From assembly GCA_964016885.1 (NCBI GenBank), contig OZ024757.1:62001-126000 (forward strand): DNA of 64,000 bases. Direction: 5' to 3'. The notes beneath the pieces are model-generated. The model made no database searches, was not told the DNA's origin, and saw only the letters and a program-made list of their open reading frames with translations. The DNA comes from Eledone cirrhosa. Its lineage: Eukaryota. The position numbers and the translations under genes are program-made. Positions 25,541-52,218 of the stretch are shown here, one piece after another (position 1 is the first letter of the stretch; every line of letters begins with the position of its first letter).

Positions 25541-25994
25541 TACCTGATTGACTATGTAGGTGACTAGTTTGAAATCTACTTCCCCAGAACCTTTCAACAT
25601 CTCAGTTATTTCTAATGGACCAGCAGCTTTACCATTTTTATTCCCCTTGATTGCTTCTTTGACTCTATAACTATCTATTTCAATAGCTGGTCCGTCCTTG
25701 GGGTTAGTTGGAGATTGTCTCTCTTTTCAGTTATTTACCATTTTACAGGGTTAACTGTGTGTGATCCCTTCTATTCACTTGGGAACATATTCAACTTTGA
25801 TAATAAATTGACTAAATTAGTATATTCTATACCATAGCGTAGTTTCGATACAAGTCTTGGTTAGATCTTCTACAAATAAACTGTGACGAGAGTAATTTTT
25901 TAGTAAACCAGTTTTATTATGAACATTTACAACATAGGCGGTTTTGATCTTGTCTTATTGTGTTTGTTTCATTAAACAGCTTTTACAGGATAAT

Positions 25995-26892
<898 letters not shown>

Positions 26893-29598
26893 CTATGGTT
26901 TCTCTCCTATATGAATACGTTTGTGATTTCTTAAGACATTATTTTGAGAGAATGATTTACCACAGATATCACAGTGATAGGGCTTCTCTCCTGTATGGAT
27001 GAGATTGTGTGTTGCTAAGTTTCCTTTCTGAGAGAATGATTTACCACAGATATCACAATGGTATGGTTTCTCTCCTGTATGAGTAAGATTGTGTGTTAAT
27101 AAGTTTCCTTTCTGTGAAAATGACTTACCACAGATATTACAGTGATATGGCTTCTCTCCTGTATGAATAGATTTGTGAATTGTGAAGTAATTATATTGAG
27201 AGAATGATTTACTACAGATATCACAGTGGTATGGCTTCTCTCCTGTATGAGTAAAATTGTGTGTTAATAAGCTTCCTTTCTGTGAAAATGACTTACCACA
27301 GATATTACAACGGTATGGCTTCTCGCCTGTATGAATAAGATTGTGTAATGTCAAGTGTTTTTTCTGAGAGAATGATTTACCACAGATATCACAGTGGTAT
27401 GGTTTCTCTCTTGTATGAGTAAGATTGTGTGTTAATAAGCTTCCTTTCTGTGAAAATGACTTACCACAGATATTACAATGGTATGGCTTCTCTCCTGTAT
27501 GGATGAGATTGTGTGTTAATAAGCTTCCTTTCTGTGAAAATGACTTACCACAGATATTACACTGGTATGGCTTCTCTCCTGTATGAGTAAGATTGTGTGC
27601 TAATAAGTATCCTTTCTGTGAAAATGACTTACCACAGATATTACAGTGATATGGCTTCTCTTCTGTATGAATAGATTTGTGATTTGTTAAGACATTATTT
27701 TGAGAGAATGATTTACCACAGATATCACAGTGGTATGGTTTCTCTCCTGTATGAATACGTTTGTGATTTGTTAAGGCATTATTTTGAGAGAATGATTTAC
27801 CACAGATATCACAGTGGTAGGGCTTCTCTCCTGTATGGATGAGATTGTGTGTTGTTAAGTGTCTTTTCAGAGAGAATGCTTTACCACAGATATCACAGTG
27901 GTATGGTTTCTCTCTTGTATGAGTAAGATTATGTGTTAATAAGTTTCCTTTATGTGAAAATGACTTACCACAGATATTACAGTGATATGGCTTCTCTTCT
28001 GTATGAATAGATTTGTGATTTGTTAAGACATTATTTTGAGAGAATGATTTACCACAGATATCACGGTAGTATGGTTTCTCTCCTGTATGGATGAGATTGT
28101 GTGTTGTTAAGTGTCCTTTCTGAGAGAATGCTTTACCACAGATATCGCAGTGGTATGGTTTCTCTCCTGTATGAATACGTTTGTGATTTGTTAAGACATT
28201 ATTTTGAGAGAATGATTTACCACAGATATCACAGTAGTATGGTTTCTCTCCTCTATGGATGAGATTGTGTCTTGTTAAGTGTCCTTTCTGAGAGAATGAT
28301 TTACCACAGATATCACAATGGTATGGTTTCTCTCCTGTATGAATACGTTTGTGATTTGTTAAGACATTATTTTGAGAGAATGATTTACCACAGATATTAC
28401 AGTGGTATGGCTTCTCTCCTGTATGAATATGTTTGTGATCTGCTAAGACATTATTTTGAGAGAATGATTTACCGCAGATATCACAGAAGTATGGTTTCTC
28501 TCCTGTATGAATACGTTTGTGATTTGTTAAGACATTATTTTGAGAGAATGATTTACCACAGATATCACAGTGATAGGGCTTCTCTCCCGTATGGATGAGA
28601 TTGTGTCTTGTTAAGTGTACTTTCAGAGAGAATGATTTACCACAGATATCACAGTGGTATGGCTTCTCTCCTGTATGAATATGTTTGTGATTTGCTAAGA
28701 CATTATTTTGAGAGAATGATTTATCGCAGATATCACAGTAGTATGGTTTCTCTCCTGTATGAATACGTTTGTGATTTGTTAAGACATTATTTTGAGAGAA
28801 TGATTTACCACAGATATCACAGTGATAGGGCTTCTCTCCTGTATGAATACGTTTGTGACTTGTTAAGACATTATTTTGAGAGAATGATTTACCACAGATA
28901 TCGCAGTGATAGGGTTTCTCTCCTGTATGGATGAGATTGTGTATTGTTAAGTATCCTTTAAGAGAGAATGATTTACCACAGATATTACAATGGTATGGTT
29001 TCTCTCCTTTATGGATGAGATTGTGTGTTGTTAAGTTTCCTTTCAGAGAGAATGATTTACCACAGATATCACAGTGGTATGGTTTCTCTCCTGTATGAGT
29101 AAGATTGTGTGTTAATAGGCTTCCTTTCTGTGAAAATGACTTACCACAGATATTACAATGGTATGGCTTCTCTCCTGTATGGATGAGATTGTGTGTTAAT
29201 AAGCTTCCTTTCTGAGAGAATGATTTACCACAGATATCACAATGGTATGGCTTCTCTCCTGTATGGATGAGATTGTGTGTTGTTAAGTGTCCTTTCAGAG
29301 AGAATGATTTACCACAGATATCACAGTGGTATGGTTTCTCTCCTGTATGAGTAAGATTGTGTGTTAATAGGCTTCCTTTCTGTGAAAATGACTTACCACA
29401 GATATTACAATGGTATGGCTTCTCTCCTGTATGGATGAGATTGTGTGTTAATAAGCTTCCTTTCTGAGAGAATGATTTACCACAGATATCACAATGGTAT
29501 GACTTCTCTCCTCTATTCTTTGTTATCTCATTAGGAATACTAAAACCTTTAGGCAGTGTTTCACATTTAACCTTCTTCTCACCCAACTTATTTTCCAT
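26893..29598 (-). CDS. C2H2 multi-zinc-finger protein copy A: 901 aa from the first ATG, 31 tandem 28-aa fingers (finger 18 has C>R), no recognisable effector domain
   Basis: Uninterrupted ORF of CxxC-x12-HxxxH units with TGEKPY linkers. The first ATG is at 29598 (MENKLGEKK); the ORF-track start at 29619 is TTG. Confidence 0.9.
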
Positions 29599-30104
29599 AA
29601 TGTTTCTTCTTCTCACCAAAGTATATAGATGTTATTCTTGTGTTATATTTATATTATATTTCTAGAAATATTGTTTGATTCTATATTTCTATCAACTGTG
29701 ATCTCAGTTAATATCTGAAGATTATGAAAACTTCTTTGTCATCAAAGTTTAATTAAAATACAAAATCTTCATTCGAGATAGTGAAGAAACGAACATTTGC
29801 CAATAAACTCACTTCTGATGAAATATTTTACAGTAAGTCAGTCATAGATTTATATAATCAGTGTTATATCAGTTCTGTATAAAACACTTTAGTCTTTGAT
29901 GATAAATGTTTATGTATCCAAGGTTTAAAAATTTATCCCAATGTCATCTGGTATTCTGAAATAAGAAAGAAACAGTATGAGATAATAGAGAATACTGAAA
30001 AACTAGAGATAGATTTATTAGAGAAAATTTTAGACTTTTACATCAATAATCTCTAAATATAGACCTTTAATTGAAAAATCAACTTACTTTCGTTTTTAAT
30101 TTGT

Positions 30105-31100
30105 TATCAATATTACATCACACAACCTTGTATGATGTCTATATATACAGACATATATATACGTATGTCAATGTTACATCATACAACCTTGTGTGTTGTC
30201 TATATATACATATGTCAATGTTACATCATACAACCTTGTGTAATGTCTATATATACAGACATATATATATCATCATCAACGTTTAACGTCCGTGTTCCAC
30301 GCTTGCATGGGTTTGGATGGGGGTATTCCCACTTGAGGCAAGAGTGATTGTCTTGCTCGCATAGGACTGTCTGGCAGGTTTTCTACAGTTGGATGCCCTT
30401 CCTAACACCAACCACATTTACAGTGTGGGACTGGGAGGTTTTTACCGCGTTGCCTACACGGCCACATTACAGCGTGGACTGTGTGTTTTTTTTGTCGTGA
30501 CACCTACACGATCTCATTTGTTTCGGCCTGGATGTTGTGGCACCAACATAACTTTACATAGGAGGGGGTGGTGTGGATGGGGTGTGGGTGGTGGGGCGGG
30601 GGTGTATTTTGTTAGAGATGCCTACTGGCTGTAGTAGGTTTTACTATGTATTTAGGTAAGGCAGGTCTTCTCTATTACTGAGTACCGCCAAAGGTCTCGG
30701 TCCAGTGACATTGTCTTGGAAAGGTGTAAGTGTGTGAGGTCGGAGTTTATCAGCTCGTCCCAGGATTTTCTAGGTCTGCCTATATATATTACATTATATA
30801 ACCTTGTGTAATGTCTGTGTATATAGACATAAATATATATATATGTTACATTATACAACCTTGTGTGATGTCTATATATACAGACATATATATACATATG
30901 CCAATATTACATTATACAACCTTGTGTAATGTCTATATATAGACATATATATACATATGTCCATATTACATTATACAACCTTGTGTAATATCTATATATA
31001 TAGACATATATACATATGTTACATTATACAACCTTGTGTAATGTCTATATATATAGACATATATATACATATATCAATATTACATTATACAACCTTGTCA
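30105..31100. repeat. ~45-55-bp AT-rich minisatellite (ttacattatacaaccttgtgtaatgtctatatat..) split by the RTE 3' fragment; copy B ~50954-51949
   Basis: About 3 units left of 30268 and about 6-7 units right of 30780. Confidence 0.85.
30268..30780 (-). mobile_element. 5'-truncated RTE LINE 3' end (ORF C-terminus, 3'UTR, (TGA)n tail), copy A
   Basis: The minus strand encodes GRPRKSWDELINSDL...DRDLWR, typical of the RTE C-terminus. It ends in GGACGTTAAACGTTGATGATG. Confidence 0.8.
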
Positions 31101-31369
31101 TGCTCTACTATCTCAAGTATTGAGTACTCTGTAGAATAATGGTCTATATATATATATATATATATATAAAATAAACCTGTCGTGAGTTATGAATCAGAAT
31201 TTGTCGAATCTTACTGTTGCCAAATTGTTGTTTTGAGAAATGTAATGTATTTCACTTCATTTCCTTGTCTCTCCATGTTTCTTGGTCTAATTTACCTATC
31301 AGTATTTATATTGTCCCTTTAACTTTTCATAATGATGGTCGAATCTGTAGGTCCTTCATAAAAATAATC

Positions 31370-34010
31370 TTCTAGTTGGTACTATGAATGTAGCCACTTA
31401 AAAAGGTCGCTCTAACAAGGTTGTAGAGATGCTTCAACATGAGGAAGTTGATGTGTGTTGTGTCCAAGAGACCAGGTGGAGGGATGGGTCTGCTAGATTC
31501 ATTGTGGGTAAAAAACGATGCTATAAACTACTCTGGCTGGGAAATGACAATGGACTGGGTGGAGTAGGAATTATGTTAGCTGAAAAATGGGTAGATAAGG
31601 TAATTGACGTAAATAGAGTGAACAACAGAATAATTAAAATAAGACTAGTCCTAAATAGAACTACCGTGACAATAATATCCGCTTATGCACCCCAATCTGG
31701 ACTACCATTATAAAAGATTCTATGAGTCGCTAATGCTCACTACCTCCCAAATAACCGACAGTGACTACATAATTATTGCTGGTGACCTACATGGTCATGT
31801 TGGACAACATTGTGACGGCTATGGGTTTGGTACTAGAAATGAGAATCCTGGAATTCTGTGATGCAAATAACCTAACTATGTGTAACACAAACTTCAAAAA
31901 ACGAAACAATCACTTGATCACCTATAGATCAGGGGAACACTCCAGTCAGATAGATTATATCCTTACTAGAAGACGTGACAGAGTGTCTATTGTAAACACT
32001 AAATCCCTCCCCCGTGAAGAATGCACCTCCCAACATAGCCTCATAGTTAGTGACCTCATAGTCAGGACTAGACATACTCGACAATAGAATGCCTTGAGGA
32101 GAAGAATATGGAAATTGAAGGACCCCTCAGCCAGTAACAAATTTAAAAGCATATTACTTGATGCTTTTGACAGTAAGGAAGAGCAATTAGAGACATACAA
32201 TATAGAGGAATAGGGGGAATTCCTGAAAGTTAACCTGCTGAAGGCAAAAGATGAGATCAGTTGGTGGAGTAGACCTATAGGCAGGAAGAGAGTAACGTGG
32301 TGGTGGAACAGTAAGGTAGAGGAGTCAATCAAGGCCAAAAAACAGGCTTGGGAAGTATGGCAGGATGGGGGAAGTAGAGAACACTATCAAGTGGCCAGGA
32401 GAGAAGCTAGGAGACACATGTACTTTGCAAGAAGAGAAGCAGAGGACAGAAAGTTCAAGCATGTTCTACAACGCGAGGACCAAAAACGTGAGGTGTTTAG
32501 GATTGCTAGGCAATGTGTCAAGGAAAACCGTGATATTGTCAGGGAGAAGTGTTACCGTAATGATGATGGTGTACTTGCCATCACTGATGCTGATAAGAAG
32601 GTAGCTTGGAAGTGTCACTACGAGAGACTACTAAATGAGGAGAATAAATGAGAAAAAGATAGTCTGCCCCAAATTGATCCAATAGAGGGACCAGCAGTGC
32701 AAGTTAAACGTAGTATAATAAGTAAGGCAATCAAAGATATGAAGACAGGCAAGGCAGCTGGGCCTTCGGGGATAGTTGCTGAAATGCTGAAAGCATCTGG
32801 AATGGTGGGACACACTATGGTCACCCGGATAGTAAACCAAGTCATACAGAATGAGATCATACCAAATGACTGGCGTAGCAGCATCATCATTAACTGCTAC
32901 AAGGGTAAAGGAGATGCCCTAGATAGGGGAAACTATAGAGGCATTAAATCAGTTGACCAGGTCATGAAGGTCACAGAAAGAGTTATAGCACAACTAATCA
33001 GAGAGCGAATTGATCTAGATGAAATGCAGTTTGGGTTTGTGTCAGGTAAAAGTACCACAGATGCTCTTTTCCTTGTACAACAACTACAGAAGTACCTAGC
33101 TAAAAGTAAACCCCTATACTTAGCTTTTGTTGACTTGGAGAAAGCCTTTGACAGAGTCCCCCGCTCCATTATCTGGTCGGCTCTTAGAAAACTGGGTGTT
33201 GATGAATGGCTTGTGAGAGCTATACAAGCCATGTATAAAGAAACAGTCAGCAAGGTTAGAATTAACAATGAATATAGTGAAGAATTTAGCGTAAAAGTTG
33301 GTGTTCATTAAGGCTCTGTCTTTAGCCCCCTCCTATTTATTATTGCCGTTCAGGCTATAACAGAGGAGTTCAAGCCCATGGGAGCTTCCATACACAGATG
33401 ATCTAACTCTCATAGTAGAATCGATGGGTGAACTAGAGAAGAAATTCCAAACATGGAAGCATGGCCTAGAATCAAAAGGCCTTAAAGTTAACTTGTCTAA
33501 GACTAAAGTTCTAGTATGTAGAAAGGAAAATAGGGCACAGGTTCCATCTGGGAAATGGCCATGCTCAGTGTGTAGGAAAGGAGTAGGCAGAAATTCCATT
33601 TTATGTCCCAAATGCAAACTATGGGTACATAAAAGATGTAGAGGGATCACAGGTAAGCTATCTTAGAATGTAGATTTTATATGTGGCTGATGCTCAGGTG
33701 CAATAAGTAGCAAGTGCCCACAGGATACTAGCTCCTTCTATTGCCCAGATGGTTCTATAGAAATAGTGGACACCTTTCGTTACCTGGGTGACAAAATCAG
33801 CAGTGGTGGATGGGTGCTCTGAAAGTACAGTAGCCAGAGTCAGAATGGGGTGGAAAAAGTTCAGAGAGCTATTGGCCACTAAAGGTTTCTCTCTAAAAAT
33901 GAAAGGCAGATTATATGATGCCTGCATACGAACAGCAATGTTACATGGCAGTGAGACCTGGGCACTGTGCAGAGGACCTGCGCAGACTGGAGAGGAATAA
34001 AGCATGATCG
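31370..34010 (+). mobile_element. Degraded RTE-clade non-LTR retrotransposon (APE endonuclease + reverse transcriptase), lacking its 3' end, copy A
   Basis: APE motifs GTMNV, VCCVQETRW, SAYAPQ, GDLHGHVG, SQIDYIL. RT motifs KAAGPSG, NYRGI, QFGF, FVDLEKAFDRV, YTDDL. Cys/His segment CSVC..CPKC..HKRC and GSETWA. Many stops and frameshifts. Confidence 0.92.
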
Positions 34011-34315
34011 TGTCCACAAGACATGTATCAGACGGTGTTTCAGCTAACTCTATTAGAACCCTATTATGTACAGCCACCAACAAATGTCCCTTCACCATCA
34101 AAGCAGCTCCCTGATATACAGATACACAATCCCTACTTGGCTGGCTAATCTTGACATAGTCATAATTGTTTCTACTTTTGGCACAAGGCCAGTAATTGTG
34201 AGAGTGTATTACTGGTACTTTAGTCAATGAAACGAAACCCACGTTTAAATAAGTTTCAACCATAAGTAGATGAAGTGAATTAATTTGAAAGAGATTCAGA
34301 CTAAAACGACGATAA

Positions 34316-34532
34316 CTTTAATTTACGTCAAACAGCGAGGTACAGTTAAATATAAAATATATTTTAGAATATAAGGTAGTAAATAACATAATTAGATAGA
34401 CAGAGGTGATTGAAATAATAAAGATATCTTTAATTTACTTCAAACAACGAGGTACAGTTAAATATAAAATATATTTTATAATATAAGGTAGTAAATAATA
34501 TAAATAGACGGAGGTAATTGAAATAATAAAGA
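34316..34532. repeat. Two-copy direct repeat, period ~112 bp (copy B ~55165-55381)
   Basis: ctttaatttac..cgaggtacagttaaatataaaatatatttta..ttgaaataataaaga occurs twice. Confidence 0.85.
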
Positions 34533-34756
34533 CAGTCATGATAACAATATATTTTATATTACATGTTACAGTGGAATCTGTCTATTGAAAAATAACCCAT
34601 TTCAGTTTGGAAGTATTTTTCTCTATATATAAAATGACGAGGTTGAAATATCTTCTCCCAATGTTGTTATATAATTATTGTATCGTTGAAAGGTTCACAT
34701 AATTCTATTTTTTACATACATTAATATAGACTTCAAATGAATCTTTGTCAACTTAC

Positions 34757-34797
34757 CTCCTTCATATATAATCAATGTGTTGTGTTGTTAGTTTTTA
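34757..34797 (-). other. Putative 41-nt non-coding exon; upstream donor CCG|GTAAGA at 35270
   Basis: Acceptor atttcttttgttgtttAG at 34798 and donor GTAAGT at 34756 on the minus strand. Confidence 0.35.
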
Positions 34798-35371
34798 CTA
34801 AACAACAAAAGAAATAATCTCTTTGTTGTTAAATTAGAAATTTCAAAGATGTTATCAGCTTTATTTCAGGACATCAACGTTGGTGTAACTTCTTCATATT
34901 TAGTCATGAATTGATATCTTGTCAGAATAAAGTAGTGAGGCTGACTTTATGTCTTTAGCCAGAGATTTGATAGGAAATATGTATATATTAGGTTGATATG
35001 TGGTTTAAATATATATATTGTCTACAAATGACTGATAGCAGATATTCTGGTGAAATAGTCGTTTTTCTACTACAGATTATAATGGAACTCTTAGTAGACA
35101 CAATTGTAAAGTAAGAATAGATATGACAGTGTAAGACTGATGTCAGGGAAAGAAAATTATGTGTGTATATATATATAGTTAATTGTTACACAAGATATAA
35201 TTAGACTAATTAAAGTTGTAATGAAGACAGCATGTACGCGGTGGAGTTAACAAAGTTTCAACTTTCTTACCGGTGTCGTACGTTAAAAGTAACTGATATA
35301 ATTTAATCCATTCAAACACATTTCCAATCGTATCTAATTGATGGTAAATCGAAAAGTATCACTCAGTTAAA

Positions 35372-35379
35372 TATCGATA
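35372..35379. promoter_or_regulatory. DRE-like motif TATCGATA (copy B 56221-56228)
   Basis: Exact 8-mer ~100 bp upstream (minus strand) of the putative first splice donor. Confidence 0.3.
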
Positions 35380-35589
35380 AGGAAACATCTACGTAGTATC
35401 TCACACTGCTAGAAATAGCAGCTAAATTATCTTTTACAACTTTGCTTTTTGTTTAGACTCTCTTAATTTTGGTTATACAATCAACAATAGTAAGTCTTTT
35501 GTTCAGACTTCGGAATACGGTGGGAGACCTTCAGAAGATGCACGGGTGTGTGAATATATATACATATATATAAATACATGTTGAGGAAC

Positions 35590-35825
35590 ATGCGTTAGGG
35601 GTTAGATCGAAAGGTGATGTGTTGTGTCCTTGAGCAAGACACTTTATTGCCAAGATATATCGGCCATAGCCTTTCCGGTGGACATCACTGGTGGCGTGGA
35701 AAGTGAAAGGTGATATGCATGGTCGACTGTTGGTCTTATTAATACAACTTTGCCCGGACCTGTGCCTCAGAAGTAAACTTTCTAGGTGCAAATCACATGG
35801 GCATTTGTGACCAAAGGGGGTCTTT
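35590..35825 (+). mobile_element. SINE remnant (copy B ~56439-56674)
   Basis: Conserved SINE central motif GTTGTGTCCTTGAGCAAGACACTT and a 3' end ..ctttctaggtgcaa..gtgaccaaagggggtcttt that I recall from octopus SINEs. Not verified by search. Confidence 0.55.
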
Positions 35826-35828
35826 GAT

Positions 35829-36019
35829 ATGTATATATAATGTATTTTGCAATACACTTTATGCTTAATTAAAAGCATTTTGAAGACCGTAAGCTATTGT
35901 TTTAAAGTAGTGACAAATTCACTCACTTTGATCTCAGCAAACAGGGGAGATAAGCCGACGGTCTTCAAAATGCTTTTAATTAAGCATAAAGTGTATTGCA
36001 AAATACATTATATATACAT
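35829..36019. repeat. Perfect 62-bp inverted repeat with 67-bp spacer, MITE/fold-back-like (copy B 56678-56868)
   Basis: 35829-35890 is the exact reverse complement of 35958-36019. Confidence 0.9.
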
Positions 36020-36284
36020 CCATATATATATTGCTATTGACACACGAGTTGTGATATATTAGTAAAAAGGAAAAGAAAATGCTGACAAATTTTTCCCAGT
36101 GAAAAATAGTTCAATTAGGAATAAGTATAAATAAGTATTAATTAGTATTCAGTTTTAGTTTTAAGTTTTTACCGGTGGTTGCGCATTTCTTATGCTTTTC
36201 AAAAATAATTTTGAGATAGAGTGCTCGTGATTTTTGCTCTAATCTGATCAGTTTTATGTGAAAAAAGTGGCTTGAGAGGCATTA

Positions 36285-36445
36285 AAATTTGGTTGGTTGT
36301 TGAATGTCATGTGAATAAACGCTATAAAATTTGCGCCTATTCGTGTGGCATAAATTCTTGTCGTCAAAACAATTTTGATTGGTCGGTAGAAGTCACGTGA
36401 ATGTTTAAATTGATTTTAGCGCGAGCTGGTTTCGCGCCAAATGTA
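36285..36445. promoter_or_regulatory. Promoter-like cluster with reverse CCAAT, E-box and E2F sites (copy B ~57134-57294)
   Basis: ATTGG 36378-36382, GTCACGTGA 36392-36400, TTTAGCGCG 36415-36423, TTTCGCGCCAAA 36430-36441. Locally CpG-enriched. Confidence 0.5.
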
Positions 36446-36582
36446 GGTTTGTCGAAGAGTGATCTTTTCCGCTTGATTGAGTTGCAGTCATGTTGAGGGG
36501 TCAACAGTTCAGGTGTCTATATGTGTGTGTGTAGCAAAGTGGTTCATTGTTGTGATAAGGGAAATGAATCGGTCTGTAGGAA

Positions 36583-36625
36583 TGTGTGTGTGTGGGGGGG
36601 GGGGGGGGGGGGGGGGGGGAGGAGG
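36583..36625 (+). repeat. (TG)n followed by a G run; length differs between copies
   Basis: G26 in copy A; G18 with longer (TG)n and (AGG)n in copy B at ~57432-57473. Confidence 0.85.
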
Positions 36626-37238
36626 TTATTTTAACATGTTAAAACATATTTTTCAGCTCTTGTCTTATACGGAGAAGTGTGTGTGTCTGTCTGTATGTTA
36701 GTGTTCGAGTGTGTGTGTGTATGGACCAGTATTTTTGTGGTACTGGTAAAAATGGCGTACATTATATTCGATAATTTCAGTCATTTGCAAAAACGATTCT
36801 CACAAAAGAACATCAATAACATCAATAATAAAAGAGGTGAAATGATGTATAGTATTGTCATAACAACAAGGCGTGTGTGAGTCCAGATTGTACGTACTGC
36901 AAGGGGAATCCATTAGGCCCTACCGTATGGGATACTTGTGTACAAATATGTATGCACCCATCATTGTGCAATACATGTGTGTGTATGCGTATGTGTGCGT
37001 GTCGGCACGTGTGTATCTATAAACATCAAAAGGTATGCGAATTTGTGTATATTTGTGTTGCACCATAGAACATGTGTGTTTACGTATGTCATTGTGTTTA
37101 TATGTGGATAGAAATGTATGTAGGATGTATGCTGATGTAGATATGTATGTCAACGTGTGTATGTTGTGTGTTCGTCTTAGGAAGAAGTGTTTAGACGGGG
37201 TCCGTATTTGTTAATAAAGTGAGATTCTTTATATATAT

Positions 37239-37504
37239 ATATCAATGATATTAATAAATGGAAGCTATATTTATATAGCCATATTTATTCTATTATATAT
37301 ATTTCAAGAATCAGACCTTAACGGTTCAAGTTCCAGACGGAACTTGAACCGTTGAGGTCTCATTCCTGGATATGTCAGTATTTATAAAACAAACTTTGTA
37401 TTTTATCTGATGAGAGCGTACCAAAGTTTTGGTACTCTTGAAATATATATAATAGAATAAATATGGTTTTATAAATAGTTTCCATTTATTATCATCATTG
37501 ATAT
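37239..37504. mobile_element. Fold-back element, probably a Penelope-like pLTR remnant (copy B 58087-58352)
   Basis: ~70-bp imperfect inverted arms (37239-37310 / 37434-37504) enclose a 22-bp hairpin (37313-37360) and overlap the hammerhead. Flanked by (TA)n. Confidence 0.6.
37399..37459 (+). ncRNA. Minimal type I hammerhead ribozyme motif, copy A
   Basis: Stem I TATTTTAT/ATAGAATA, CTGATGA 37407-37413, hairpin stem II 37414-37439, GAAA 37440-37443, palindromic stem III ATATATAT, and predicted AUA cleavage after 37451. Confidence 0.75.
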
Positions 37505-37874
37505 TATACTCCAGAAAACCAGTCGAGTGCTCTGAATCTGTTATAAATATATCTGTTGAATTACCAACAAATTAAATATCACTTTGCTTATATATATATG
37601 TATATATAAACATGCATATATATATATGTATATATAAATATATATATATATATGTAAATATAAATATATATATATATATGTAAATTATTAAAAAAATAAT
37701 GAATAAACAAAGAAACAGTTCCTTATATTAAACAAAAAAAGTTCATTATTTTACGATCGTTTCTAGGATATATATGTGTTAGAATTGGTATGCATATTCT
37801 ATAGATCTATGTACAGTATTTATACAAACTATCAGAGGGAATATACATACCTTCACATATATATGCTGTCTTCA

Positions 37875-37962
37875 GAAATAATTGTTTCTACATTTGGCAC
37901 AAGGCCAGCAATTACCCAGTGTATTACTGGTACTTTATTTTATCGACCCCGAAAGGATGAAT
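37875..37962 (-). mobile_element. SINE fragment; related fragment at ~34160-34225 (copies ~58723-58810 and ~55009-55074)
   Basis: Both fragments share ataattgtttctac..ttggcacaaggccag..agtgtattactggtacttta. The continuation tttatcgaccccgaaaggatgaa resembles octopus SINEs (recall). Strand is tentative. Confidence 0.5.
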
Positions 37963-38156
37963 CAGAAATAATGATACTTGTTTATTGATAAGAACAAAGA
38001 TTCAATACAATAGGTCTGTTTGGGAACAGGTTTTGAATTGACCAATCAGGAGATAGTGAGGGTCAAGATAGATAGCATTAGGAGAACCTTAAATTATGGG
38101 TAGGGGAAGTAGATTTCAGTTTTGGAAGGAAAAGAGTATTATGAATGAAGGATTAT

Positions 38157-38325
38157 TTTAGGGAAGAAGTAGGTCATATGTTGACCTCAGAAATAATTTT
38201 AATTGTTCATTGAATAAAACCAACAAAGATCCATTATAATAATGGATTACTTTAGGGAAGAAGTAGGTCATATGTTGACCTCAGATATAAATTTATTTGT
38301 TCATTGACTAAAACCAACAAAGATC
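38157..38325. repeat. Two-copy ~75-bp direct repeat, period ~94 bp (copy B ~59005-59173)
   Basis: tttagggaagaagtaggtcatatgttgacctcaga..aaaaccaacaaagatc occurs twice. Confidence 0.85.
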
Positions 38326-38693
38326 AAATATATTCTGTCTGTTAATATTTGGCCAAATGGTAAAATAGTAGTAATTGAAACTTATTTTAGGGGTGAAATT
38401 AGGTCAGGTGGTCAGTAGAAGGTATACAAGCAGTTGCTGTTATAAAATAGTGATGCCAATACAAATATCTAGGGTGACCAGAGTTTTAAGATAAGGATGT
38501 TAGTGAAAAAAATACATCTATGAAAAGGATATAAAATTAATTTACTTCATGGGTACATATATATATATATATTTTTTGATAAAATTATACTAATACATAT
38601 AGATGTGATAAATAAGAGTTAGATGCAGTTTAAAAGTGCTGTTAAGGATGAGGGGAGATTAAAAGAATATAAAAATATAAAAATGATATATAT

Positions 38694-41600
38694 GACAGTA
38701 GCTACTAGGGTGAGATAGTGACATTGGGGTAAATACAGTAGCTACTAGGGTGAGGTACTGACATTGGGGTGAAGACAGTAGCTACTAGGGTGAGATAGTG
38801 ACATTGGGGTGAAGACAGTAGCTACTAGAGTGAGATAGTGACATTAGGGTGGAGACAGTAGATACTAGGGTGAGATAGTGACATTGGAGTGAAGACAGTA
38901 GCTACTAGGGTGAGATAGTGACATTGGGGTGGAGACAGTAGCTACTAGGGGTGAGATAGTGACATTGGGGTGAAGACAGTAGCTACTAGGGTGAGATAGT
39001 GACATTGGGGTGAAGACAGTAGCTACTTGGGTGAGATAGTGACATTGAGGTGAAGACATTAGCTACTACAGTGAGATAGTGACATTGGGGTGAAGACAAT
39101 AGCTACTAGGGTGCGATAGTGACATTGGGTGAAGACAGTAGCTACTAGGGTGAGAGAGTGACATTGGTGTGAAGACATTAGCTACTTGGGTGAGATAGTG
39201 ACATTGGCATGAAGACAGTAGCTACTAGGGTGAGATAGTGACATTGGGGTGAAGACAGTAGCTACTAGGGTGAGATAGTGACATTGGGGTGGAGAGAGTA
39301 GCTACTAGGGTGAGATAGTGACATTAGGGTGAAGACAGTAGCTACTAGGGTGAGATAGTGACATTAGGCTGAAGACAGTAGCTACTAGGGTGAAGACAGT
39401 AGCTACTATGGTGAGATAGTGACATTGGGGTGAAGACAGTAGCTACTAGGATGAGATAGTGACATTGGGGTGACGATAGTAGCTACTAGGGTGTAATAGT
39501 GACATTGGGGCGAAGACAGTAGCTACTAGGGTGAGATAGTGACATTGGGGTGAAGACAGTAGCTACTAGGGCGAGATAGTGACATTGGGGTGTAGATAGT
39601 AGCTATAAGGGTGAGATAGTGACATTGGGGTGGAAACAGTAACTACTAGAGTCAGATAGTGACATTTGAGTGAAGACAGTAGCTACTAGGGTGAGATAGT
39701 GACATTAGGGTGAAGACAGTAGCTACTAGGGTGAGATAGTGACATTGGGGTAAAGAGAGTAGCTATAAGGGTGAGATAGTTAGATTGGGGTGAAGACAGT
39801 AGCTACTAGGGTGAGATAGTGACATTGGGGTGAAGACAGTAGCTACTAGGGGGAGATAGTTACAATGGGGTGGCGACAGTAGCTACAAGGGTGAGATAGT
39901 GACATTGGGGTGAAGACAGTAGCTACTAGGGGGAGATAGTTACAATTGGGAGGCGACAGTAGCTACTAGGGTGAGATAGTGACATAGGGGTGAAGGCAGT
40001 AGCTACTAGGGTGAGATAGTGAAATTGGGGTGAAGACAGTAGCTACTAGGGTGAGATAGTGACATTAGGGTGAACACAGTAGCTACTAGGGTGAGATAGT
40101 GACATTGGGGTGAAGACAGTAGCTATTTGGATGAGATAGTGACATTGGGGTGAAGACCGTAGCTACTAGGGTGAGATAGTGACATTGGGGTAAAGACAGT
40201 AGCTACTAGGGTGATATAGTGACAATGGGGTGAAGACACTGGCAACTAGTGTGACATAGTGACATTGGGGTGGAGACAATAGCTACTAGGGTGAGATAGT
40301 GACATTGGAGTGAAGACAGTAGCTACTAGGGTGAGATAGTGACATTGGGGTGAAGAGAGTAGCTACGAGGGTGAGATAGGGACATTGTGCAGAAGACAGT
40401 AGCTACTAGGGTGAAATAGTGACATTGGCGTGAAGGCAGTAGCTATTAGGGTGAGATAGTGACATTGGGCTGATGACAATAGCTACTAGGGTGAGATAGT
40501 GACATTAGGGTGAAGACAGTAGCTACTAGGGTGAGATAGTGATATTGGGGTGGAGACAATAGGTACTAGGCTGAGACAGTGACATTTGAGTGAAGACAGT
40601 AGCTACTACGGTGAGATAGTGACATTGGGGTGGAGACAGGAGCTAATAGGGTGAGATAGTGAAATTGGGGCGAAGACAGTAGCTACTAGGGTGAGATAGT
40701 GACATTGGGGTGAAAACAGTAGCTACTAGGTTGAGATAGTGACATTGGGCTGATGACAATAGCTACTAGGGTGAGATAGTGACATTAGGGTGAAGACAGT
40801 AGCTACTAGGGTGAGATAGTGATATTGGGGTGGAGACAATAGCTACTAGGCTGAGACAGTGACATTTGAGTGAAGACAGTAGCTACTACGGTGAGATAGT
40901 GACATTGGGGTGGAGACAGGAGCTAATAGGGTGAGATAGTGAAATTGGGGGTGAAGACAGTAGCTACAAGGGTGAGATAGTGACATTGGGGTGAAAACAG
41001 TAGCTACTAGGGTGAGATAGTGACATTGGGGTGAAGATAGTAGCTACTAGGGTGAGATAGTGACATTGGGGTGAAGAAAGTAGCTATTTGGGTCAGATAG
41101 TGACATTGGGGTGAAGACAGTAGCTACTAGGGTGAGATAGTGACATTGGGGTAAAGACAGTAGCTACCAGGGTGAGATAGTGACATTAGGGTGAAGACAG
41201 TAGCTACTAGGGTGAGATAGTGACATCAGGGTAAAGACAGTAGCTATAAGGGTGAGATAGTGACATTGGGGTCAAGACAGTAGCTACTAGGGTGAGATAG
41301 TGACATTGGGGTGGAAACAGTAACTACTAGAGTCAGATAGTGACATTGGCATGAAGACAGTAGCTACTAGGGTGAGATAGTGACATTGGGGTAAAGAGAG
41401 TAGCTATAAGGGTGAGATAGTGACATTGGGGTGAAGACAGTAGCTACTAAGGTGAGATAGTGACATTGGGGTGAAGACAGTAGCTACTAGGGGGAGATAG
41501 TTACAATGGGGAGGCGAGAGTAGCTACAAGTGTGAGATAGTGACATTGGAGCGAAGACATTAGCTACTAGGTTGAGCTAGTGATATTGGGGTGGAGACAG

Positions 41601-44600
41601 TAGCTACTAGGGTGAGATAGTAACATGAGGATGAAGCCACTAGTTACTAGGGTGAGATAGTGACATTGGGGTGAAGACACTAACTACTAGGGTGAAATAG
41701 TGACATTGGGGTGAAGACAGTAGCTACTAGGGTGAGAAAGTGACATTGGGGTGAAGGCAGTAGCTATTTGGGTGAGATAGTGACATTGGGGCGAAGACAG
41801 TAGCTACTAGGGCGAGATAGTGACATTGGGGTGAAGATAGTAGCTACAAGTGTGAGATAGTGACATTGGAGTGAAGGCAGTAGCTACCTGGGTGAGATAG
41901 TGATATTGGGGTGGAGACAATAGCTACTAGGCTGAGACAGTGACATTGGAGTGAAGACAGTAGCTACTAGGGTGAGATAGTGACATTGGGGTGGAGACAG
42001 TAGCTACTAGGGTGAGATAGTGACATTAGGGTGAAGACAGTAGCTACTAGGGTGAGATAGTGACATTGGAGTGAAGACAGTAGCTACTAGGGTGAGATAG
42101 TGACATGAGGATGAAGCCAGTAGTTACTAGGGTGAGATAGTGACACCGGGGTGGAGACAATAGCTACTAGGGTGAGATAGTGACATTGGGGTGAAGACAG
42201 TAGCTACTAGGGTGAGATAGTGAAATTGGGGTGAAGACAGTAGATACTAGGGTGAGATAGTGACATTGGGTTGAAGACAGTAGCTATTTGGGTGAGATAG
42301 TGACATTCGGGTGAAGACCGTAGCTACTAGGGTGAGATAGTCACAATGGGGAGCCGACAGTAGCTACTAGAGTGAGATAGTGACATTGGGGGGAAGACAG
42401 TAGCTATTAGGGTGAGATAGTGACATTGGGGTGAAGACACTAGCAACTAGGGTGAGATAGTGACGTTGGGGTGAAGGCAGTAGCTACTATGGTGAGATAG
42501 TGACATTGGAGTGAAGACAGTAGCTACTAGGATGAGATAGTGACATTGGGGTGACGATAGTAGCTACTAGGGTGAAATAGTGACATTCGGGCGAAGACAG
42601 TAGCTACTAGGGTGAGATAGTGACATTGGGGTGAAGACAGTAGCTACTAGGGCGAGATAGTGACATTGGGGTGTAGATAGTAGCTATAAGGGTGAGATAG
42701 TGACATTGGGGTGGAAACAGTAACTACTAGAGTCAGATAGTGACATTTGAGTGAAGACAGTAGCTACTAGGGTGAGATAGTGACATTAGGGTGAAGACAG
42801 TAGCTACTAGGGTGAGATAGTGACATTGGGGTAAAGAGAGTAGCTATAAGGGTGAGATAGTGACATTGGGGTGAAGACAGTAGCTACTAGGGGGAGATAG
42901 TTACAATGGGGAGGCGACAGTAGCTACAAGGGTGAGATAGTGACATTGGGGTGAAGACAGTAGCTACTAGGGGGAGATAGTTACAATTGGGAGGCGACAG
43001 TAGCTACTAGGGTGAGATAGTGACATTAGGGTGAACACAGTAGCTACTAGGGTGAGATAGTGACATTGGGGTGAAGGCAGTAGCTACTAGGGTGAGATAG
43101 TGAAATTGGGGTGAAGACAGTAGCTACTAGGGTGAGATAGTGACATTAGGGTGAACACAGTAGCTACTAGGGTGAGATAGTGACATTGGGGTGAAGACAG
43201 TAGCTATTTGGATGAGATAGTGACATTGGTGTGAAGACCGTAGCTACTAGGGTGAGATAGTGACATAGGGGTGAAGGCAGTAGCTACTAGGGTGAGATAG
43301 TGAAATTGGGGTGAAGACAGTAGCTACTAGGGTGAGATAGTGACATTAGGGTGAACACAGTAGCTACTAGGGTGAGATAGTGACATTGGGGTGAAGACAG
43401 TAGCTATTTGGATGAGATAGTGACATTGGGGTGAAGACCGTAGCTACTAGGGTGAGATAGTGACATTGGGGTAAAGACAGTAGCTACTAGGGTGATATAG
43501 TGACATTGGGGTGAAGACACTGGCAACTAGTGTGACATAGTGACATTGGGGTGGAGACAATAGCTACTAGGGTGAGATAGTGACATTGGAGTGAAGACAG
43601 TAGCTACTAGGGTGAGATAGTGACATTGGGGTGAAGAGAGTAGCTACGAGGGTGAGATAGGGACATTGGGCAGAAGACAGTAGCTACTAGGGTGAAATAG
43701 TGACATTGGCGTGAAGGCAGTAGCTATTAGGGTTAGATAGTGACATTGGGCTGATGACAATAGCTACTAGGGTGAGATAGTGACATTAGGGTGAAGACAG
43801 TAGCTACTAGGGTGAGATAGTGATAATGGGGTGGAGACAATAGGTACTAGGCTGAGACAGTGACATTTGAGTGAAGACAGTAGCTACTACGGTGAGATAG
43901 TGACATTGGGGTGGAGACAGGAGCTAATAGGGTGAGATAGTGAAATTGGGGCGAAGACAGTAGCTACTAGGGTGAGATAGTGACATTGGGGTGAAGACAA
44001 TAGATACTATGGTGAGATAGTGACATTGGGTGAAGACCGTAGCTACTAGGGTGAGATAGTGACATTGGGGTGGAAACAGTAACTACTAGAGTCAGATAGT
44101 GACATTGGCATGAAGACAGTAGCTACTAGGGTGAGATAGTGACATTGGGGTAAAGTGAGTAGCTATAAGGGTGAGATAGTGACATTGGGGTGAAGACAGT
44201 AACTACTAGGGGGAGATAGTTACAATGGGGAGGCGAGAGTAGCTACAAGTGTGAGATAGTGACATTGGAGCGAAGACATTAGCTACTAGGTTGAGCTAGT
44301 GACATTGGGGTGGAGACCGTAGCTACTAGGGTGAGATAGTAACATGAGGATGAAGCCAGTAGTTACTAGGGTGAAATAGTGACATTGGGGTGAAGGCAGT
44401 AGCTACTAGGGTCCGATAATGACATTGGGGTGAAGGCAGTAGCTACTAGGGTGCGATAGTGACATTGGGGTGAAGACAGTAGCTACTTGGGTGAGATAGT
44501 GACATTGGGGCGAAGACAGTAGCTACTAGGGTGAGATAGTGACATTGGGGTGAAGACAGTAGCTACTAGGGCGACATAGTGACATTGGGGTGAAGATAGT

Positions 44601-46305
44601 AGCTACTAGTGTGAGATAGTGACATTGGAGTGAAGGCAGTAGCTACCTGGGTGAGGTAGTGATATTGGGGTGGAGACAGTAGCTACTAGGGTGAGATAGT
44701 GACATTAGGGTGAAGACAGTAGCTACTAGGGTGAGATAGTGACATTGGAGTGAAGACAGTAGCTACTAAGGTGAGATAGTGACATGAGGATGAAGCCAGT
44801 AGTTACTAGGGTGAGATAGTGACATCGGGGTGGAGACAATAGCTACTAGGGTGAGATAGTGACATTGGGGTGAAGACAGTAGCTACTAGGGTGAGATAGT
44901 GAATTTGGGGTGAAGACAGTAGATACTAGGGTGAGACAGTGAAATTGGGGTGAAGACAATAGCTACTAGGGTGAGATAGTGACATTGGGGTGAAAACAGT
45001 AGCTATTTGGGTGAGATAGTGACATTGGGGCGAAGACCGTAGCTACTAGGGTGTGATAGTGACATTGGGTTGAAGACAGTAGCTACTAGGGTGAGATATT
45101 GACATTGGGGTGAAGACAGTAGCTACTAGGGTGAGATAGTGACATTAGGGTGAAGACAGTAGCTACTAGAGTGAGATAGTGACATTGGGGGGAAGACAGT
45201 AGCTACTAGGGTGAGATAGTGACATTGGGGTGAAGACAGTAGCTACTAAGGTGAGATAGCGACATTGGGGAGAAGACAGTAGCTTCTAGGGTGAGATAGT
45301 GACATTGGGGTGAAGACAGTAGCTGCTAGGGTGAGATAGTGACGATAGTAGCTACTAGGGTGAGATAGTGACATTGGGTGAAGACAGTAGCTACACGGGT
45401 GAGATAGTGACATTGGAGTAAAGACAGTAACTACTAGGGTGAGATAGTGAAATTGGGGTGAAGACAGTAGTTACTAGGATGAGATAGTGACATTGGGGTG
45501 ACGATAGTAGCTACTAGGGTGAGATAGTGACATTGGGGAGGCGACAGTAGCTACTAGGGTGAGATAGTGACATTGGGGTAAAGACAGTAGCTATAAGGGT
45601 GAGATAGTGACATTGGGGTAAAGACAGTAGCTACTAGGGTGAGATAGTGACATTGGGGTGGAAACAGTAACTACTAGAGTTAGAGAGTGACATTGGGATG
45701 AAGACAGTAGCTACTAATGGGAGATAGTGACATTGGGGAGGCGACAGTAGCTACTAGGGTGAGATAGTGACATTGGAGAGAAGACATTAGCTACTAGGTT
45801 GAGCTAGTGAATTGGGGGTGGAGACAGTAGCTACTAGGGTGAGATATTAACATGAGGATGAAGCCAGTAGTTACTAGGGTGAGATAGTGACATTGGGTTA
45901 AAGACAGTAGCTACTAGGGTGAGATAGTGACATTGGGGTGAAGGCAGTAGCTACTAGGGTGAGATAGTGACATTGGGGTGATGACAGTAGCTACTAGGGT
46001 GAGATAGTGACATTAGGGTGAAGACAGTAGCTACTAGGGTGAGGTAGTGATATTGGGGTTTAGACAATAGCTACTAGAGTGAGATAGTGACATTGGAGTG
46101 AAGACAGTAGCTATTAGGGTGAGATAGTGACATTGGAGTGAAGACAGTAGCTACTAGGGTGAGATAGTGACATTAGGGTGGAGACAGTGACATTGGAGTG
46201 AAGACAGTAGCTACTAGTGTGAGATATTGACATTGGGGTGAAGACAGTAGCTACTAGGGTGAGATAGTGATAGTGGGATGAAGACAGTAGCTACTAGGGC
46301 GAGAT
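38694..46305 (+). repeat. 40-bp satellite array 2 (about 190 monomers), chimeric
   Basis: Same monomer. 38694-39393 matches the start of array 3, and 39394-46305 matches the last ~6.9 kb of array 1 variant by variant. Confidence 0.97.
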
Positions 46306-46759
46306 TACCTGATTGACTATGTAGGTGACTAGTTTGAAATCTACTTCCCCAGAACCTTTCAACATCTCAGTTATTTCTAATGGACCAGCAGCTTTACCAT
46401 TTTTATTCCCCTTGATTGCTTCTTTGACTCTATAACTATCTATTTCAATAGCTGGTCCGTCCTTGGGGTTAGTTGGAGATTGTCTCTCTTTTCAGTTATT
46501 TACCATTTTACAGGGTTAACTGTGTGTGATCCCTTCTATTCACTTGGGAACATATTCAACTTTGATAATAAATTGACTAAATTAGTATATTCTATACCAT
46601 AGCGTAGTTTCGATACAAGTCTTGGTTAGATCTTCTACAAATAAACTGTGACGAGAGTAATTTTTTAGTAAACCAGTTTTATTATGAACATTTACAACAT
46701 AGGCGGTTTTGATCTTGTCTTATTGTGTTTGTTTCATTAAACAGCTTTTACAGGATAAT

Positions 46760-47657
<898 letters not shown>

Positions 47658-50447
47658 CTATGGTTTCTCTCCTATATGAATACGTTTGTGATTTCTTAAG
47701 ACATTATTTTGAGAGAATGATTTACCACAGATATCACAGTGATAGGGCTTCTCTCCTGTATGGATGAGATTGTGTGTTGCTAAGTTTCCTTTCTGAGAGA
47801 ATGATTTACCACAGATATCACAATGGTATGGTTTCTCTCCTGTATGAGTAAGATTGTGTGTTAATAAGTTTCCTTTCTGTGAAAATGACTTACCACAGAT
47901 ATTACAGTGATATGGCTTCTCTCCTGTATGAATAGATTTGTGAATTGTGAAGTAATTATATTGAGAGAATGATTTACTACAGATATCACAGTGGTATGGC
48001 TTCTCTCCTGTATGAGTAAAATTGTGTGTTAATAAGCTTCCTTTCTGTGAAAATAACTTACCACAGATATTACAACGGTATGGCTTCTCGCCTGTATGAA
48101 TAAGATTGTGTAATGTCAAGTGTTTTTTCTGAGAGAATGATTTACCACAGATATCACAGTGGTATGGTTTCTCTCTTGTATGAGTAAGATTGTGTGTTAA
48201 TAAGCTTCCTTTCTGTGAAAATGACTTACCACAGATATTACAATGGTATGGCTTCTCTCCTGTATGGATGAGATTGTGTGTTAATAAGCTTCCTTTCTGT
48301 GAAAATGACTTACCACAGATATTACACTGGTATGGCTTCTCTCCTGTATGAGTAAGATTGTGTGCTAATAAGTATCCTTTCTGTGAAAATGACTTACCAC
48401 AGATATTACAGTGATATGGCTTCTCTTCTGTATGAATAGATTTGTGATTTGTTAAGACATTATTTTGAGAGAATGATTTACCACAGATATCACAGTGGTA
48501 TGGTTTCTCTCCTGTATGAATACGTTTGTGATTTGTTAAGGCATTATTTTGAGAGAATGATTTACCACAGATATCACAGTGGTAGGGCTTCTCTCCTGTA
48601 TGGATGAGATTGTGTGTTGTTAAGTGTCTTTTCAGAGAGAATGCTTTACCACAGATATCACAGTGGTATGGTTTCTCTCTTGTATGAGTAAGATTATGTG
48701 TTAATAAGTTTCCTTTATGTGAAAATGACTTACCACAGATATTACAGTGATATGGCTTCTCTTCTGTATGAATAGATTTGTGATTTGTTAAGACATTATT
48801 TTGAGAGAATGATTTACCACAGATATCACGGTAGTATGGTTTCTCTCCTGTATGGATGAGATTGTGTGTTGTTAAGTGTCCTTTCTGAGAGAATGCTTTA
48901 CCACAGATATCGCAGTGGTATGGTTTCTCTCCTGTATGAATACGTTTGTGATTTGTTAAGACATTATTTTGAGAGAATGATTTACCACAGATATCACAGT
49001 AGTATGGTTTCTCTCCTCTATGGATGAGATTGTGTCTTGTTAAGTGTCCTTTCTGAGAGAATGATTTACCACAGATATCACAATGGTATGGTTTCTCTCC
49101 TGTATGAATACGTTTGTGATTTGTTAAGACATTATTTTGAGAGAATGATTTACCACAGATATTACAGTGGTATGGCTTCTCTCCTGTATGAATATGTTTG
49201 TGATCTGCTAAGACATTATTTTGAGAGAATGATTTACCGCAGATATCACAGAAGTATGGTTTCTCTCCTGTATGAATACGTTTGTGATTTGTTAAGACAT
49301 TATTTTGAGAGAATGATTTACCACAGATATCACAGTGATAGGGCTTCTCTCCCGTATGGATGAGATTGTGTCTTGTTAAGTGTACTTTCAGAGAGAATGA
49401 TTTACCACAGATATCACAGTGGTATGGCTTCTCTCCTGTATGAATATGTTTGTGATTTGCTAAGACATTATTTTGAGAGAATGATTTATCGCAGATATCA
49501 CAGTAGTATGGTTTCTCTCCTGTATGAATACGTTTGTGATTTGTTAAGACATTATTTTGAGAGAATGATTTACCACAGATATCACAGTGATAGGGCTTCT
49601 CTCCTGTATGAATACGTTTGTGACTTGTTAAGACATTATTTTGAGAGAATGATTTACCACAGATATCACAGTGATAGGGCTTCTCTCCTGTATGAATACG
49701 TTTGTGACTTGTTAAGACATTATTTTGAGAGAATGATTTACCACAGATATCGCAGTGATAGGGTTTCTCTCCTGTATGGATGAGATTGTGTATTGTTAAG
49801 TATCCTTTAAGAGAGAATGATTTACCACAGATATTACAATGGTATGGTTTCTCTCCTTTATGGATGAGATTGTGTGTTGTTAAGTTTCCTTTCAGAGAGA
49901 ATGATTTACCACAGATATCACAGTGGTATGGTTTCTCTCCTGTATGAGTAAGATTGTGTGTTAATAGGCTTCCTTTCTGTGAAAATGACTTACCACAGAT
50001 ATTACAATGGTATGGCTTCTCTCCTGTATGGATGAGATTGTGTGTTAATAAGCTTCCTTTCTGAGAGAATGATTTACCACAGATATCACAATGGTATGGC
50101 TTCTCTCCTGTATGGATGAGATTGTGTGTTGTTAAGTGTCCTTTCAGAGAGAATGATTTACCACAGATATCACAGTGGTATGGTTTCTCTCCTGTATGAG
50201 TAAGATTGTGTGTTAATAGGCTTCCTTTCTGTGAAAATGACTTACCACAGATATTACAATGGTATGGCTTCTCTCCTGTATGGATGAGATTGTGTGTTAA
50301 TAAGCTTCCTTTCTGAGAGAATGATTTACCACAGATATCACAATGGTATGACTTCTCTCCTCTATTCTTTGTTATCTCATTAGGAATACTAAAACCTTTA
50401 GGCAGTGTTTCACATTTAACCTTCTTCTCACCCAACTTATTTTCCAT
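47658..50447 (-). CDS. C2H2 multi-zinc-finger protein copy B: 929 aa from the first ATG, 32 fingers
   Basis: Same as copy A plus one extra QNNVLTS finger (84 bp) and an S>L change at 48055. Confidence 0.9.
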
Positions 50448-51116
50448 AATGTTTCTTCTTCTCACCAAAGTATATAGATGTTATTCTTGTGTTATATTTA
50501 TATTATATTTCTAGAAATATTGTTTGATTCTATATTTCTATCAACTGTGATCTCAGTTAATATCTGAAGATTATGAAAACTTCTTTGTCATCAAAGTTTA
50601 ATTAAAATACAAAATCTTCATTCGAGATAGTGAAGAAACGAACATTTGCCAATAAACTCACTTCTGATGAAATATTTTACAGTAAGTCAGTCATAGATTT
50701 ATATAATCAGTGTTATATCAGTTCTGTATAAAACACTTTAGTCTTTGATGATAAATGTTTATGTATCCAAGGTTTAAAAATTTATCCCAATGTCATCTGG
50801 TATTCTGAAATAAGAAAGAAACAGTATGAGATAATAGAGAATACTGAAAAACTAGAGATAGATTTATTAGAGAAAATTTTAGACTTTTACATCAATAATC
50901 TCTAAATATAGACCTTTAATTGAAAAATCAACTTACTTTCGTTTTTAATTTGTTATCAATATTACATCACACAACCTTGTATGATGTCTATATATACAGA
51001 CATATATATACGTATGTCAATGTTACATCATACAACCTTGTGTGTTGTCTATATATACATATGTCAATGTTACATCATACAACCTTGTGTAATGTCTATA
51101 TATACAGACATATATA

Positions 51117-51629
51117 TATCATCATCAACGTTTAACGTCCGTGTTCCACGCTTGCATGGGTTTGGATGGGGGTATTCCCACTTGAGGCAAGAGTGATTGT
51201 CTTGCTCGCATAGGACTGTCTGGCAGGTTTTCTACAGTTGGATGCCCTTCCTAACACCAACCACATTTACAGTGTGGGACTGGGAGGTTTTTACCGTGTT
51301 GCCTACACGGCCACATTACAGCGTGGACTGTGTGTTTTTTTTGTCGTGACACCTACACGATCTCATTTGTTTCGGCCTGGATGTTGTGGCACCAACATAA
51401 CTTTACATAGGAGGGGGTGGTGTGGATGGGGTGTGGGTGGTGGGGCGGGGGTGTATTTTGTTAGAGATGCCTACTGGCTGTAGTAGGTTTTACTATGTAT
51501 TTAGGTAAGGCAGGTCTTCTCTATTACTGAGTACCGCCAAAGGTCTCGGTCCAGTGACATTGTCTTGGAAAGGTGTAAGTGTGTGAGGTCGGAGTTTATC
51601 AGCTCGTCCCAGGATTTTCTAGGTCTGCC
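51117..51629 (-). mobile_element. 5'-truncated RTE LINE 3' end, copy B
   Basis: Duplicate of 30268-30780. Confidence 0.8.
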
Positions 51630-52218
51630 TATATATATTACATTATATAACCTTGTGTAATGTCTGTGTATATAGACATAAATATATATATATGTTACAT
51701 TATACAACCTTGTGTGATGTCTATATATACAGACATATATATACATATGCCAATATTACATTATACAACCTTGTGTAATGTCTATATATAGACATATATA
51801 TACATATGTCCATATTACATTATACAACCTTGTGTAATATCTATATATATAGACATATATACATATGTTACATTATACAACCTTGTGTAATGTCTATATA
51901 TATAGACATATATATACATATATCAATATTACATTATACAACCTTGTCATGCTCTACTATCTCAAGTATTGAGTACTCTGTAGAATAATGGTCTATATAT
52001 ATATATATATATATATAAAATAAACCTGTCGTGAGTTATGAATCAGAATTTGTCGAATCTTACTGTTGCCAAATTGTTGTTTTGAGAAATGTAATGTATT
52101 TCACTTCATTTCCTTGTCTCTCCATGTTTCTTGGTCTAATTTACCTATCAGTATTTATATTGTCCCTTTAACTTTTCATAATGATGGTCGAATCTGTAGG
52201 TCCTTCATAAAAATAATC

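Follow-up and report, generated by a model that had tools for sequence, protein, structure and literature searches.

A likely recent duplication of a zinc-finger gene cassette joined inside a cluster-private satellite array of Eledone cirrhosa

Tandem gene clusters undergo non-allelic homologous recombination (NAHR) between the paralogous flanks of their members. In the cluster of C2H2 zinc-finger (ZNF) genes at human 19p12, blocks of beta-satellite reportedly sit between the genes and have been duplicated along with them. Expansion of that cluster has been tied to its beta-satellite structures (Eichler et al. 1998, PMID 9724325), whose monomer is given as 68 bp in the literature cited on 19p12. 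In Drosophila, 29 of 29 Dox-family copies are flanked by the 359-bp (1.688) satellite, and ectopic recombination has been proposed (bioRxiv 10.1101/2021.08.05.454923). Satellites derived from transposable elements (TEs) are also known (PMC12628747; 10.1101/158386), and euchromatic satellites have been suggested to contribute to rearrangements (PMC7919458). A sequence-only reading of the locus described here had proposed a satellite-mediated ZNF gene duplication, a mechanism not known to it from cephalopods. The available portions of papers on ZNF expansion, cephalopod ones included (PMC10547256, PMC9795677, PMC13218726), do not mention a satellite-interleaved ZNF arrangement, and the literature other than subscription papers and supplements yielded no description of satellite-interleaved ZNF clusters in cephalopods. 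The concept itself is known outside cephalopods.

The stretch of DNA analysed (the window, 64 kb) is C18:62,001-126,000 of the 3.0-Gb assembly, and the context analysed is C18:1-1,056,000; coordinates below are those of the window unless prefixed by C18 or said to lie on it. The window contains three co-oriented arrays of a 40-bp satellite, on the plus strand, and two cassettes between them, each with a long C2H2 open reading frame (ORF) on the minus strand. Array 1 (1-25534), the window part of a 48-kb array (C18:39,497-87,534), is built of nested higher-order duplications that have periods of ~1.08, 2.12, 3.2, 5.02, and 7.3 kb and are 99%+ identical. It is followed by the non-satellite part of cassette 1 (25535-38693), array 2 (38694-46299), the non-satellite part of cassette 2 (46300-59541), and array 3 (59542-64000), which measures 5.8 kb in all and ends at C18:127,374. 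No N occurs anywhere in the window, so the junction within array 2, described below, has no gap. A young dispersed repeat (37962-38600; 94-99% identical to copies on C1, C3, C4, C5, and C8) lies before arrays 2 and 3, in the place that the shared left flank occupies in other cassettes. The interval 25,000-39,500 has no PstI or SbfI site.

The two cassettes are 99.9% identical. Over 20.6 kb, 18771-39393 and its copy are set apart by 15 substitutions, one additional finger of 84 bp, and a poly-G tract of 26 versus 18; the net gain of DNA is 20.8 kb, just as had been claimed. The coding exon of the ZNF ORF is intact in both copies. Copy 1 (26893-29598, minus strand) encodes 901 aa from the first ATG, with 30 motif matches, and copy 2 (47658-50447, minus strand) encodes 929 aa. 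The extra finger of copy 2 falls in the region 28650-28860 versus 49500-49700, and a single S-to-L change lies at 27290/48055; the duplicate proteins thus already differ. In both copies, degenerate finger-like repeats of 78-84 bp run on past the stop codon (26033-26890 in copy 1). Protein matches are generic: among those covering 90% or more, identity peaks at 59%, against a protein of Octopus sinensis, which lends weak support to the cephalopod lineage. The 25 best of the 29 Pfam families in the analysed DNA include no KRAB domain. Cassette 1 also contains a LINE reverse-transcriptase fragment (RVT_1; 32652-33308, plus strand). A block at 34560-35000 is conserved upstream of ZNF ORFs of this cluster and appears again, at a distance of a few kb from the ORFs, in three of five other sampled regions; it may be a 5' exon or a promoter region, and the 5' end of the gene likely lies there. 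A splice-acceptor-like stretch 5' of the ORF (29937-29995) has a contig depth of 3,000-8,000 versus ~7.5 per copy, which suggests that it is common to several hundred to a thousand ZNF loci.

Array 2 is a chimera. Its left arm (38694-39393, plus strand) reproduces the start of array 3 as far as 60241, in agreement with the sequence-only reading: exact-match analysis shows that 38713-39393 equals 59561-60241 over 681 bp, with one SNP at 38712. The monomer that begins at 39374 is, as was also noted at the outset, 19 bp short; at 21 bp, it is the only one of its length among the 190 monomers of array 2. To the right of this monomer (39395-46299, plus strand), array 2 keeps the order of array 1 to its end, and 60-mer painting assigns the first 2 bins to array 3 and the other 17 to array 1. 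The entry point into array 1 had been placed at ~18660. That register must be discarded, since the copy there gives a match of no more than 41 bp and departs by one monomer and several SNPs, whereas from 39397 a higher-order copy at 16552 (16550-17697) or an equally good one at 14432 (14430-15577), both on the plus strand, matches 1146 bp exactly. Array 2 shifts onto the 18771 register only within 40080-40542. Near the junction the arrays are 92% identical in register, and arrays 1 and 3 lie on the same strand.

The junction (39374-39408, plus strand) comprises the 21-bp monomer (39374-39394), the word GGGTGA (39388-39393), an A at 39396, and a 12-bp overlap (39397-39408). The phase shift at the switch is exactly 19 bp, the spacing between two GGGTGA words, and a 21-bp monomer is missing at this point from both assembled donors. 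All six donor-type monomers of the window (6/6) have G where the junction has A; moreover, the version of the junction monomer pair with A occurs at the junction only, while that with G is present in three donor copies. Had the join formed in one step at GGGTGA, 39396 would be G. In contrast, all of the junction bases are reproduced if the 18th monomer of array 3 slipped by 19 bp between GGGTGA words and an in-register exchange took place at 39397-39408. Both models require a second change at the switch point, suggesting one compound event. Since the donors may have been other alleles, the exact base of the switch cannot be fixed.

Monomers of 21 bp recur. They make up 239 of 12,965 monomers across the cluster (1.8%), in 53 array-by-sequence types, and the half-monomer was therefore rejected as a unique scar of the junction. 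One of them, at 4822-4842 (plus strand), is repeated 5,019 bp upstream within array 1; it lies inside a ~5.02-kb internal duplication and marks no gene-duplication junction. Even against the 1.8% background, the coincidence of such a monomer with the switch point is unlikely to be due to chance.

The reading that we favour, with somewhat more confidence than doubt, is that an unequal exchange of recent date between arrays 3 and 1 brought the two cassettes into tandem, with their join in a hybrid array, and that the satellite likely began as a short passenger of the gene cassette. The duplication is tandem and direct, its junction falls inside a repeat, and co-oriented homologous repeats lie on both sides of the duplicated unit. 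It did not, however, arise by a clean in-register crossover that leaves no scar, as the 19-bp loss at the switch needs a second slip. The original proposal of unequal recombination between co-oriented arrays through GGGTGA thus fits the overall structure of array 2, an array-3 start joined to an array-1 tail, but a single GGGTGA join leaves the A at 39396 unexplained. The duplication is likely real and very recent, working like known satellite-associated gene amplification.

An out-of-register monomer suits a microhomology template switch about as well as it suits unequal exchange. A real duplication could have arisen in one step, through a microhomology join or a replication template switch at GGGTGA, with the satellite contributing a 6-bp word and, at 58% of the cluster, a large target, but not extended homology. 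The short word shared at the out-of-register join, the movement of phase by exactly the distance between two such words, and the missing 21-bp monomer in both assembled donors are all as this explanation would have it. Nevertheless, it does not give the junction letter for letter from the two donors: an additional G-to-A change at 39396 is required, although an unsampled allele could differ there. Furthermore, the identical 19-bp loss is seen 239 times with no gene duplication attached. We consider a one-step join unlikely, if still a serious competitor.

It is improbable that two haplotypes of one cassette were assembled in tandem by way of the satellite. The divergence of 0.07% and the patchy SNP density are allele-like, the join sits in a repeat close to the start of the contig, and entire higher-order units distinguish the right arm from array 1. 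Against such an artefact, the join is free of gaps, and the 21-bp monomer and the base at the junction are absent from both donors. Depth was considered using contigs from three public runs (one sample, possibly that of the assembly itself), which were compared with two non-satellite stretches that exclude the junction. Of 48 contig rows listed, 26 were used, after removal of high-copy pieces and of those with no identified version, and were assigned by assembled k-mer multiplicities. On the model of two real cassettes, depth per assembled copy is 5.7-9.2 over the 26 rows. The one piece that is nearly specific to the cassettes, 29645-29721, gives 8.0 on that model and 13.5 if they are two haplotypes, where the other 25 rows give 6.6-11.0. 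The sequence-only reading had named half-depth coverage as the mark of two haplotypes; the value of 8.0 suits two copies more than one, whereas the overall fit barely separates the models (standard deviation of log depth 0.144 with both real, 0.140 if heterozygous, and 0.157 with two haplotypes). Contig depth is not a copy number, and a single piece in a single run is informative here; the support that it gives to a real duplication is mild. A third cassette allele in the reads was considered and rejected, as the variants at 34297, 35439/35445, and 35655/35657 match assembled paralogues; an extra variant at 31484 matches nothing among the paralogue alignments compared.

The window is part of a 0.9-Mb cluster (C18:39,497-931,586) in which 18 ZNF loci alternate with 13 arrays of a single satellite private to it. 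The arrays range from 0.4 to 144 kb and total 518.5 kb, 58% of the cluster span. All 891 exact genome matches of the consensus monomer fall within C18:1-1.056 Mb, as do 10,099 of the 10,116 matches of a 25-mer at up to 2 mismatches (C18:1-1,056,000), with 17 elsewhere. At 13 of the 18 loci an array lies 1.4-5.4 kb from the 3' end of the gene; its orientation is fixed and is kept where genes are inverted. The orientation of the cluster flips past ~660 kb. The left flank is common to 8 of the 13 arrays and the right flank to 5 of the 13, and the monomer order of two 0.4-kb arrays (at 715 and 755 kb) is kept at the ends of arrays of 94 and 22 kb.

Several other features of the cluster were observed. 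One ZNF locus (C18:774,023-778,570) is split into eight short ORFs with internal repetition and is likely a pseudogene. An 884-bp segment is identical between two cassettes 420 kb apart (C18:155,677 and 574,314), which likely reflects recent gene conversion. Arrays 3 and 5 match exactly over 331 bp at their ends, and array 4 (C18:148,041-151,357), with an array-5-like start, a different end, and the ancestral right flank, may be a second chimeric array. Beyond a 200-N gap lies a different satellite of ~12 kb with a 35-bp period (C18:931,797-943,660), and a satellite with a 45-bp period is found near 986-991 kb. No run of telomere hexamers is present in the first 1.056 Mb of C18.

The cassettes were compared by all-against-all BLAST with repeats masked, the unmasked run having been swamped by repeats. 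Block-wise nearest neighbours reveal a mosaic ancestry in which older events are blurred by apparent gene conversion. Two older junctions were mapped. In a ~40-kb duplication at C18:685-757 kb, the parent switches at ~716.4-717.0 kb, 0.8-1.5 kb outside a 0.4-kb array that was copied whole, with both flanks and its monomer order. In a two-gene duplication at C18:289-590 kb, the switch is at ~478.3 kb, 1.3 kb before an array, with 30 versus 5 informative sites beyond; the position of this switch is less certain, since gene conversion has turned the cassettes into mosaics. Thus, one of three mapped junctions lies inside an array, a small sample in a cluster where arrays now take up 58% of the span. 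Cassette 1 does not have the flank block that both older junctions used: outside ZNF coding repeats (69-76%), the DNA left of array 1 shares with it no match longer than 605 bp (86%). With no long shared flank beside cassette 1, long homology of high identity was left in the arrays alone, which are 92% identical.

The pairing of satellite and ZNF genes does not extend to five other ZNF regions that were sampled. Their 600 kb contain 26 ORFs with at least 5 fingers, among them close relatives at C18:17.6 Mb. No monomer-like match was found at up to 4 mismatches, and none of the 26 ORFs adjoins a long array, the largest tandem repeats measuring 1-3.7 kb. A sister cluster (C18:17,575,923-17,667,236) has five related ZNF genes (up to 97% identical at the 5' coding end) and no satellite. 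The sequence-only reading had named the lack of a genome-wide association between satellite and ZNF genes as a refutation, and the association is absent for the 40-mer; unsampled clusters could carry other satellites. That satellite-bracketed cassettes were a copy-number amplifier behind the C2H2-ZNF expansions of cephalopods is very improbable, despite the arrays within 5.4 kb on the 3' side of 13 of 18 loci and the break of the youngest duplication within one, given just 17 of 10,116 25-mer matches outside the first 1.056 Mb of C18, 0 of 26 ORFs elsewhere with a monomer or long array, and two of three junctions outside arrays. A general amplifier of ZNF clusters is not supported. The duplication in the window broke inside a satellite, yet the satellite does not explain genome-wide ZNF expansion.

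The 13 off-contig matches that were listed are single copies within a dispersed repeat that aligns with the right flank of the arrays at 62-72%. Monomer and flank are thus homologous to a dispersed element, and fragments of LINE reverse transcriptase or endonuclease lie nearby. Pfam searches of five ORFs of this repeat gave nothing in 3 of 5 and an endonuclease match below cut-off. The LINE in question presumably belongs to an RTE-like clade. Sequence comparison suggests a single origin of the satellite, in a LINE remnant on the 3' side of an ancestral gene, after which it was copied with the cassette and grew separately in each copy. The satellite is likely to be mostly a passenger of ZNF cassette duplication.

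Under the favoured reading of unequal exchange, events would have proceeded as follows. A decayed LINE on the 3' side of the ancestral gene would have supplied a 40-bp piece that became a minisatellite of ~10 copies, which was copied with each duplication of the cassette, the older exchanges passing through the shared flank beside the array. The arrays would then have expanded independently, up to 144 kb. At cassette 1, which lacked the shared flank, the ~92% identical arrays would have been alone in offering long homology of high identity and the same orientation on either side. An in-register exchange at 39397-39408, together with a GGGTGA slip that removed 19 bp, may have produced the junction in one event. 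A higher-order difference of 2.08 kb or 4.2 kb in the right arm would be allelic or a later deletion. As a conjecture that we hold only tentatively, this sequence may amount to a feedback loop, in which a LINE-derived minisatellite that spreads only by ZNF duplication balloons up to 350-fold next to some of the gene copies and, when large enough, replaces the unique flank as the substrate for exchange; the cluster would behave as an accordion, with a gene number that varies between individuals, convergent with human 19p12.

The locus provides a base-level example of a gene duplication broken inside a satellite, readable since monomer variants act as a barcode. In addition, the 13 sister arrays of 0.4-144 kb, grown from one seed, form a natural series, and whether satellites drive or ride ZNF expansion is now directly testable. 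So far, satellites in the Eledone cirrhosa genome mostly ride the expansion of the ZNF cluster.

Set beside the known systems, NAHR between paralogous flanks explains the two older junctions, which lie in shared flank. The event in the window differs from it in its substrate, satellite of ~92% identity, and in the phase shift of 19 bp at the join. As in other TE-derived satellites, monomer and flank align with a dispersed LINE-like repeat; this satellite differs in that it stayed in one gene cluster and spread by gene duplication. In Drosophila, copies of Dox, Ptpmeg2, and mkg are, like the genes here, flanked by one satellite. Dox copies, however, insert into pre-existing, dispersed satellite blocks, whereas here the array was inherited with the cassette and the duplication is tandem. 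A further parallel is human 19p12: both are tandem clusters of C2H2-ZNF genes with satellite blocks, here 13 arrays among 18 ZNF loci. At 19p12, beta-satellite is reportedly paired with KRAB genes, while the cluster described here has a 40-bp monomer and genes for which KRAB is absent from the best 25 of 29 Pfam families. Beta-satellite is found at many human loci; the 40-bp satellite belongs to one cluster alone and can be traced to a LINE. By this comparison, the cluster is best regarded as an analogue, not a member, of the 19p12 system, and one in which, unlike 19p12, a junction is resolved to ~20 bp.
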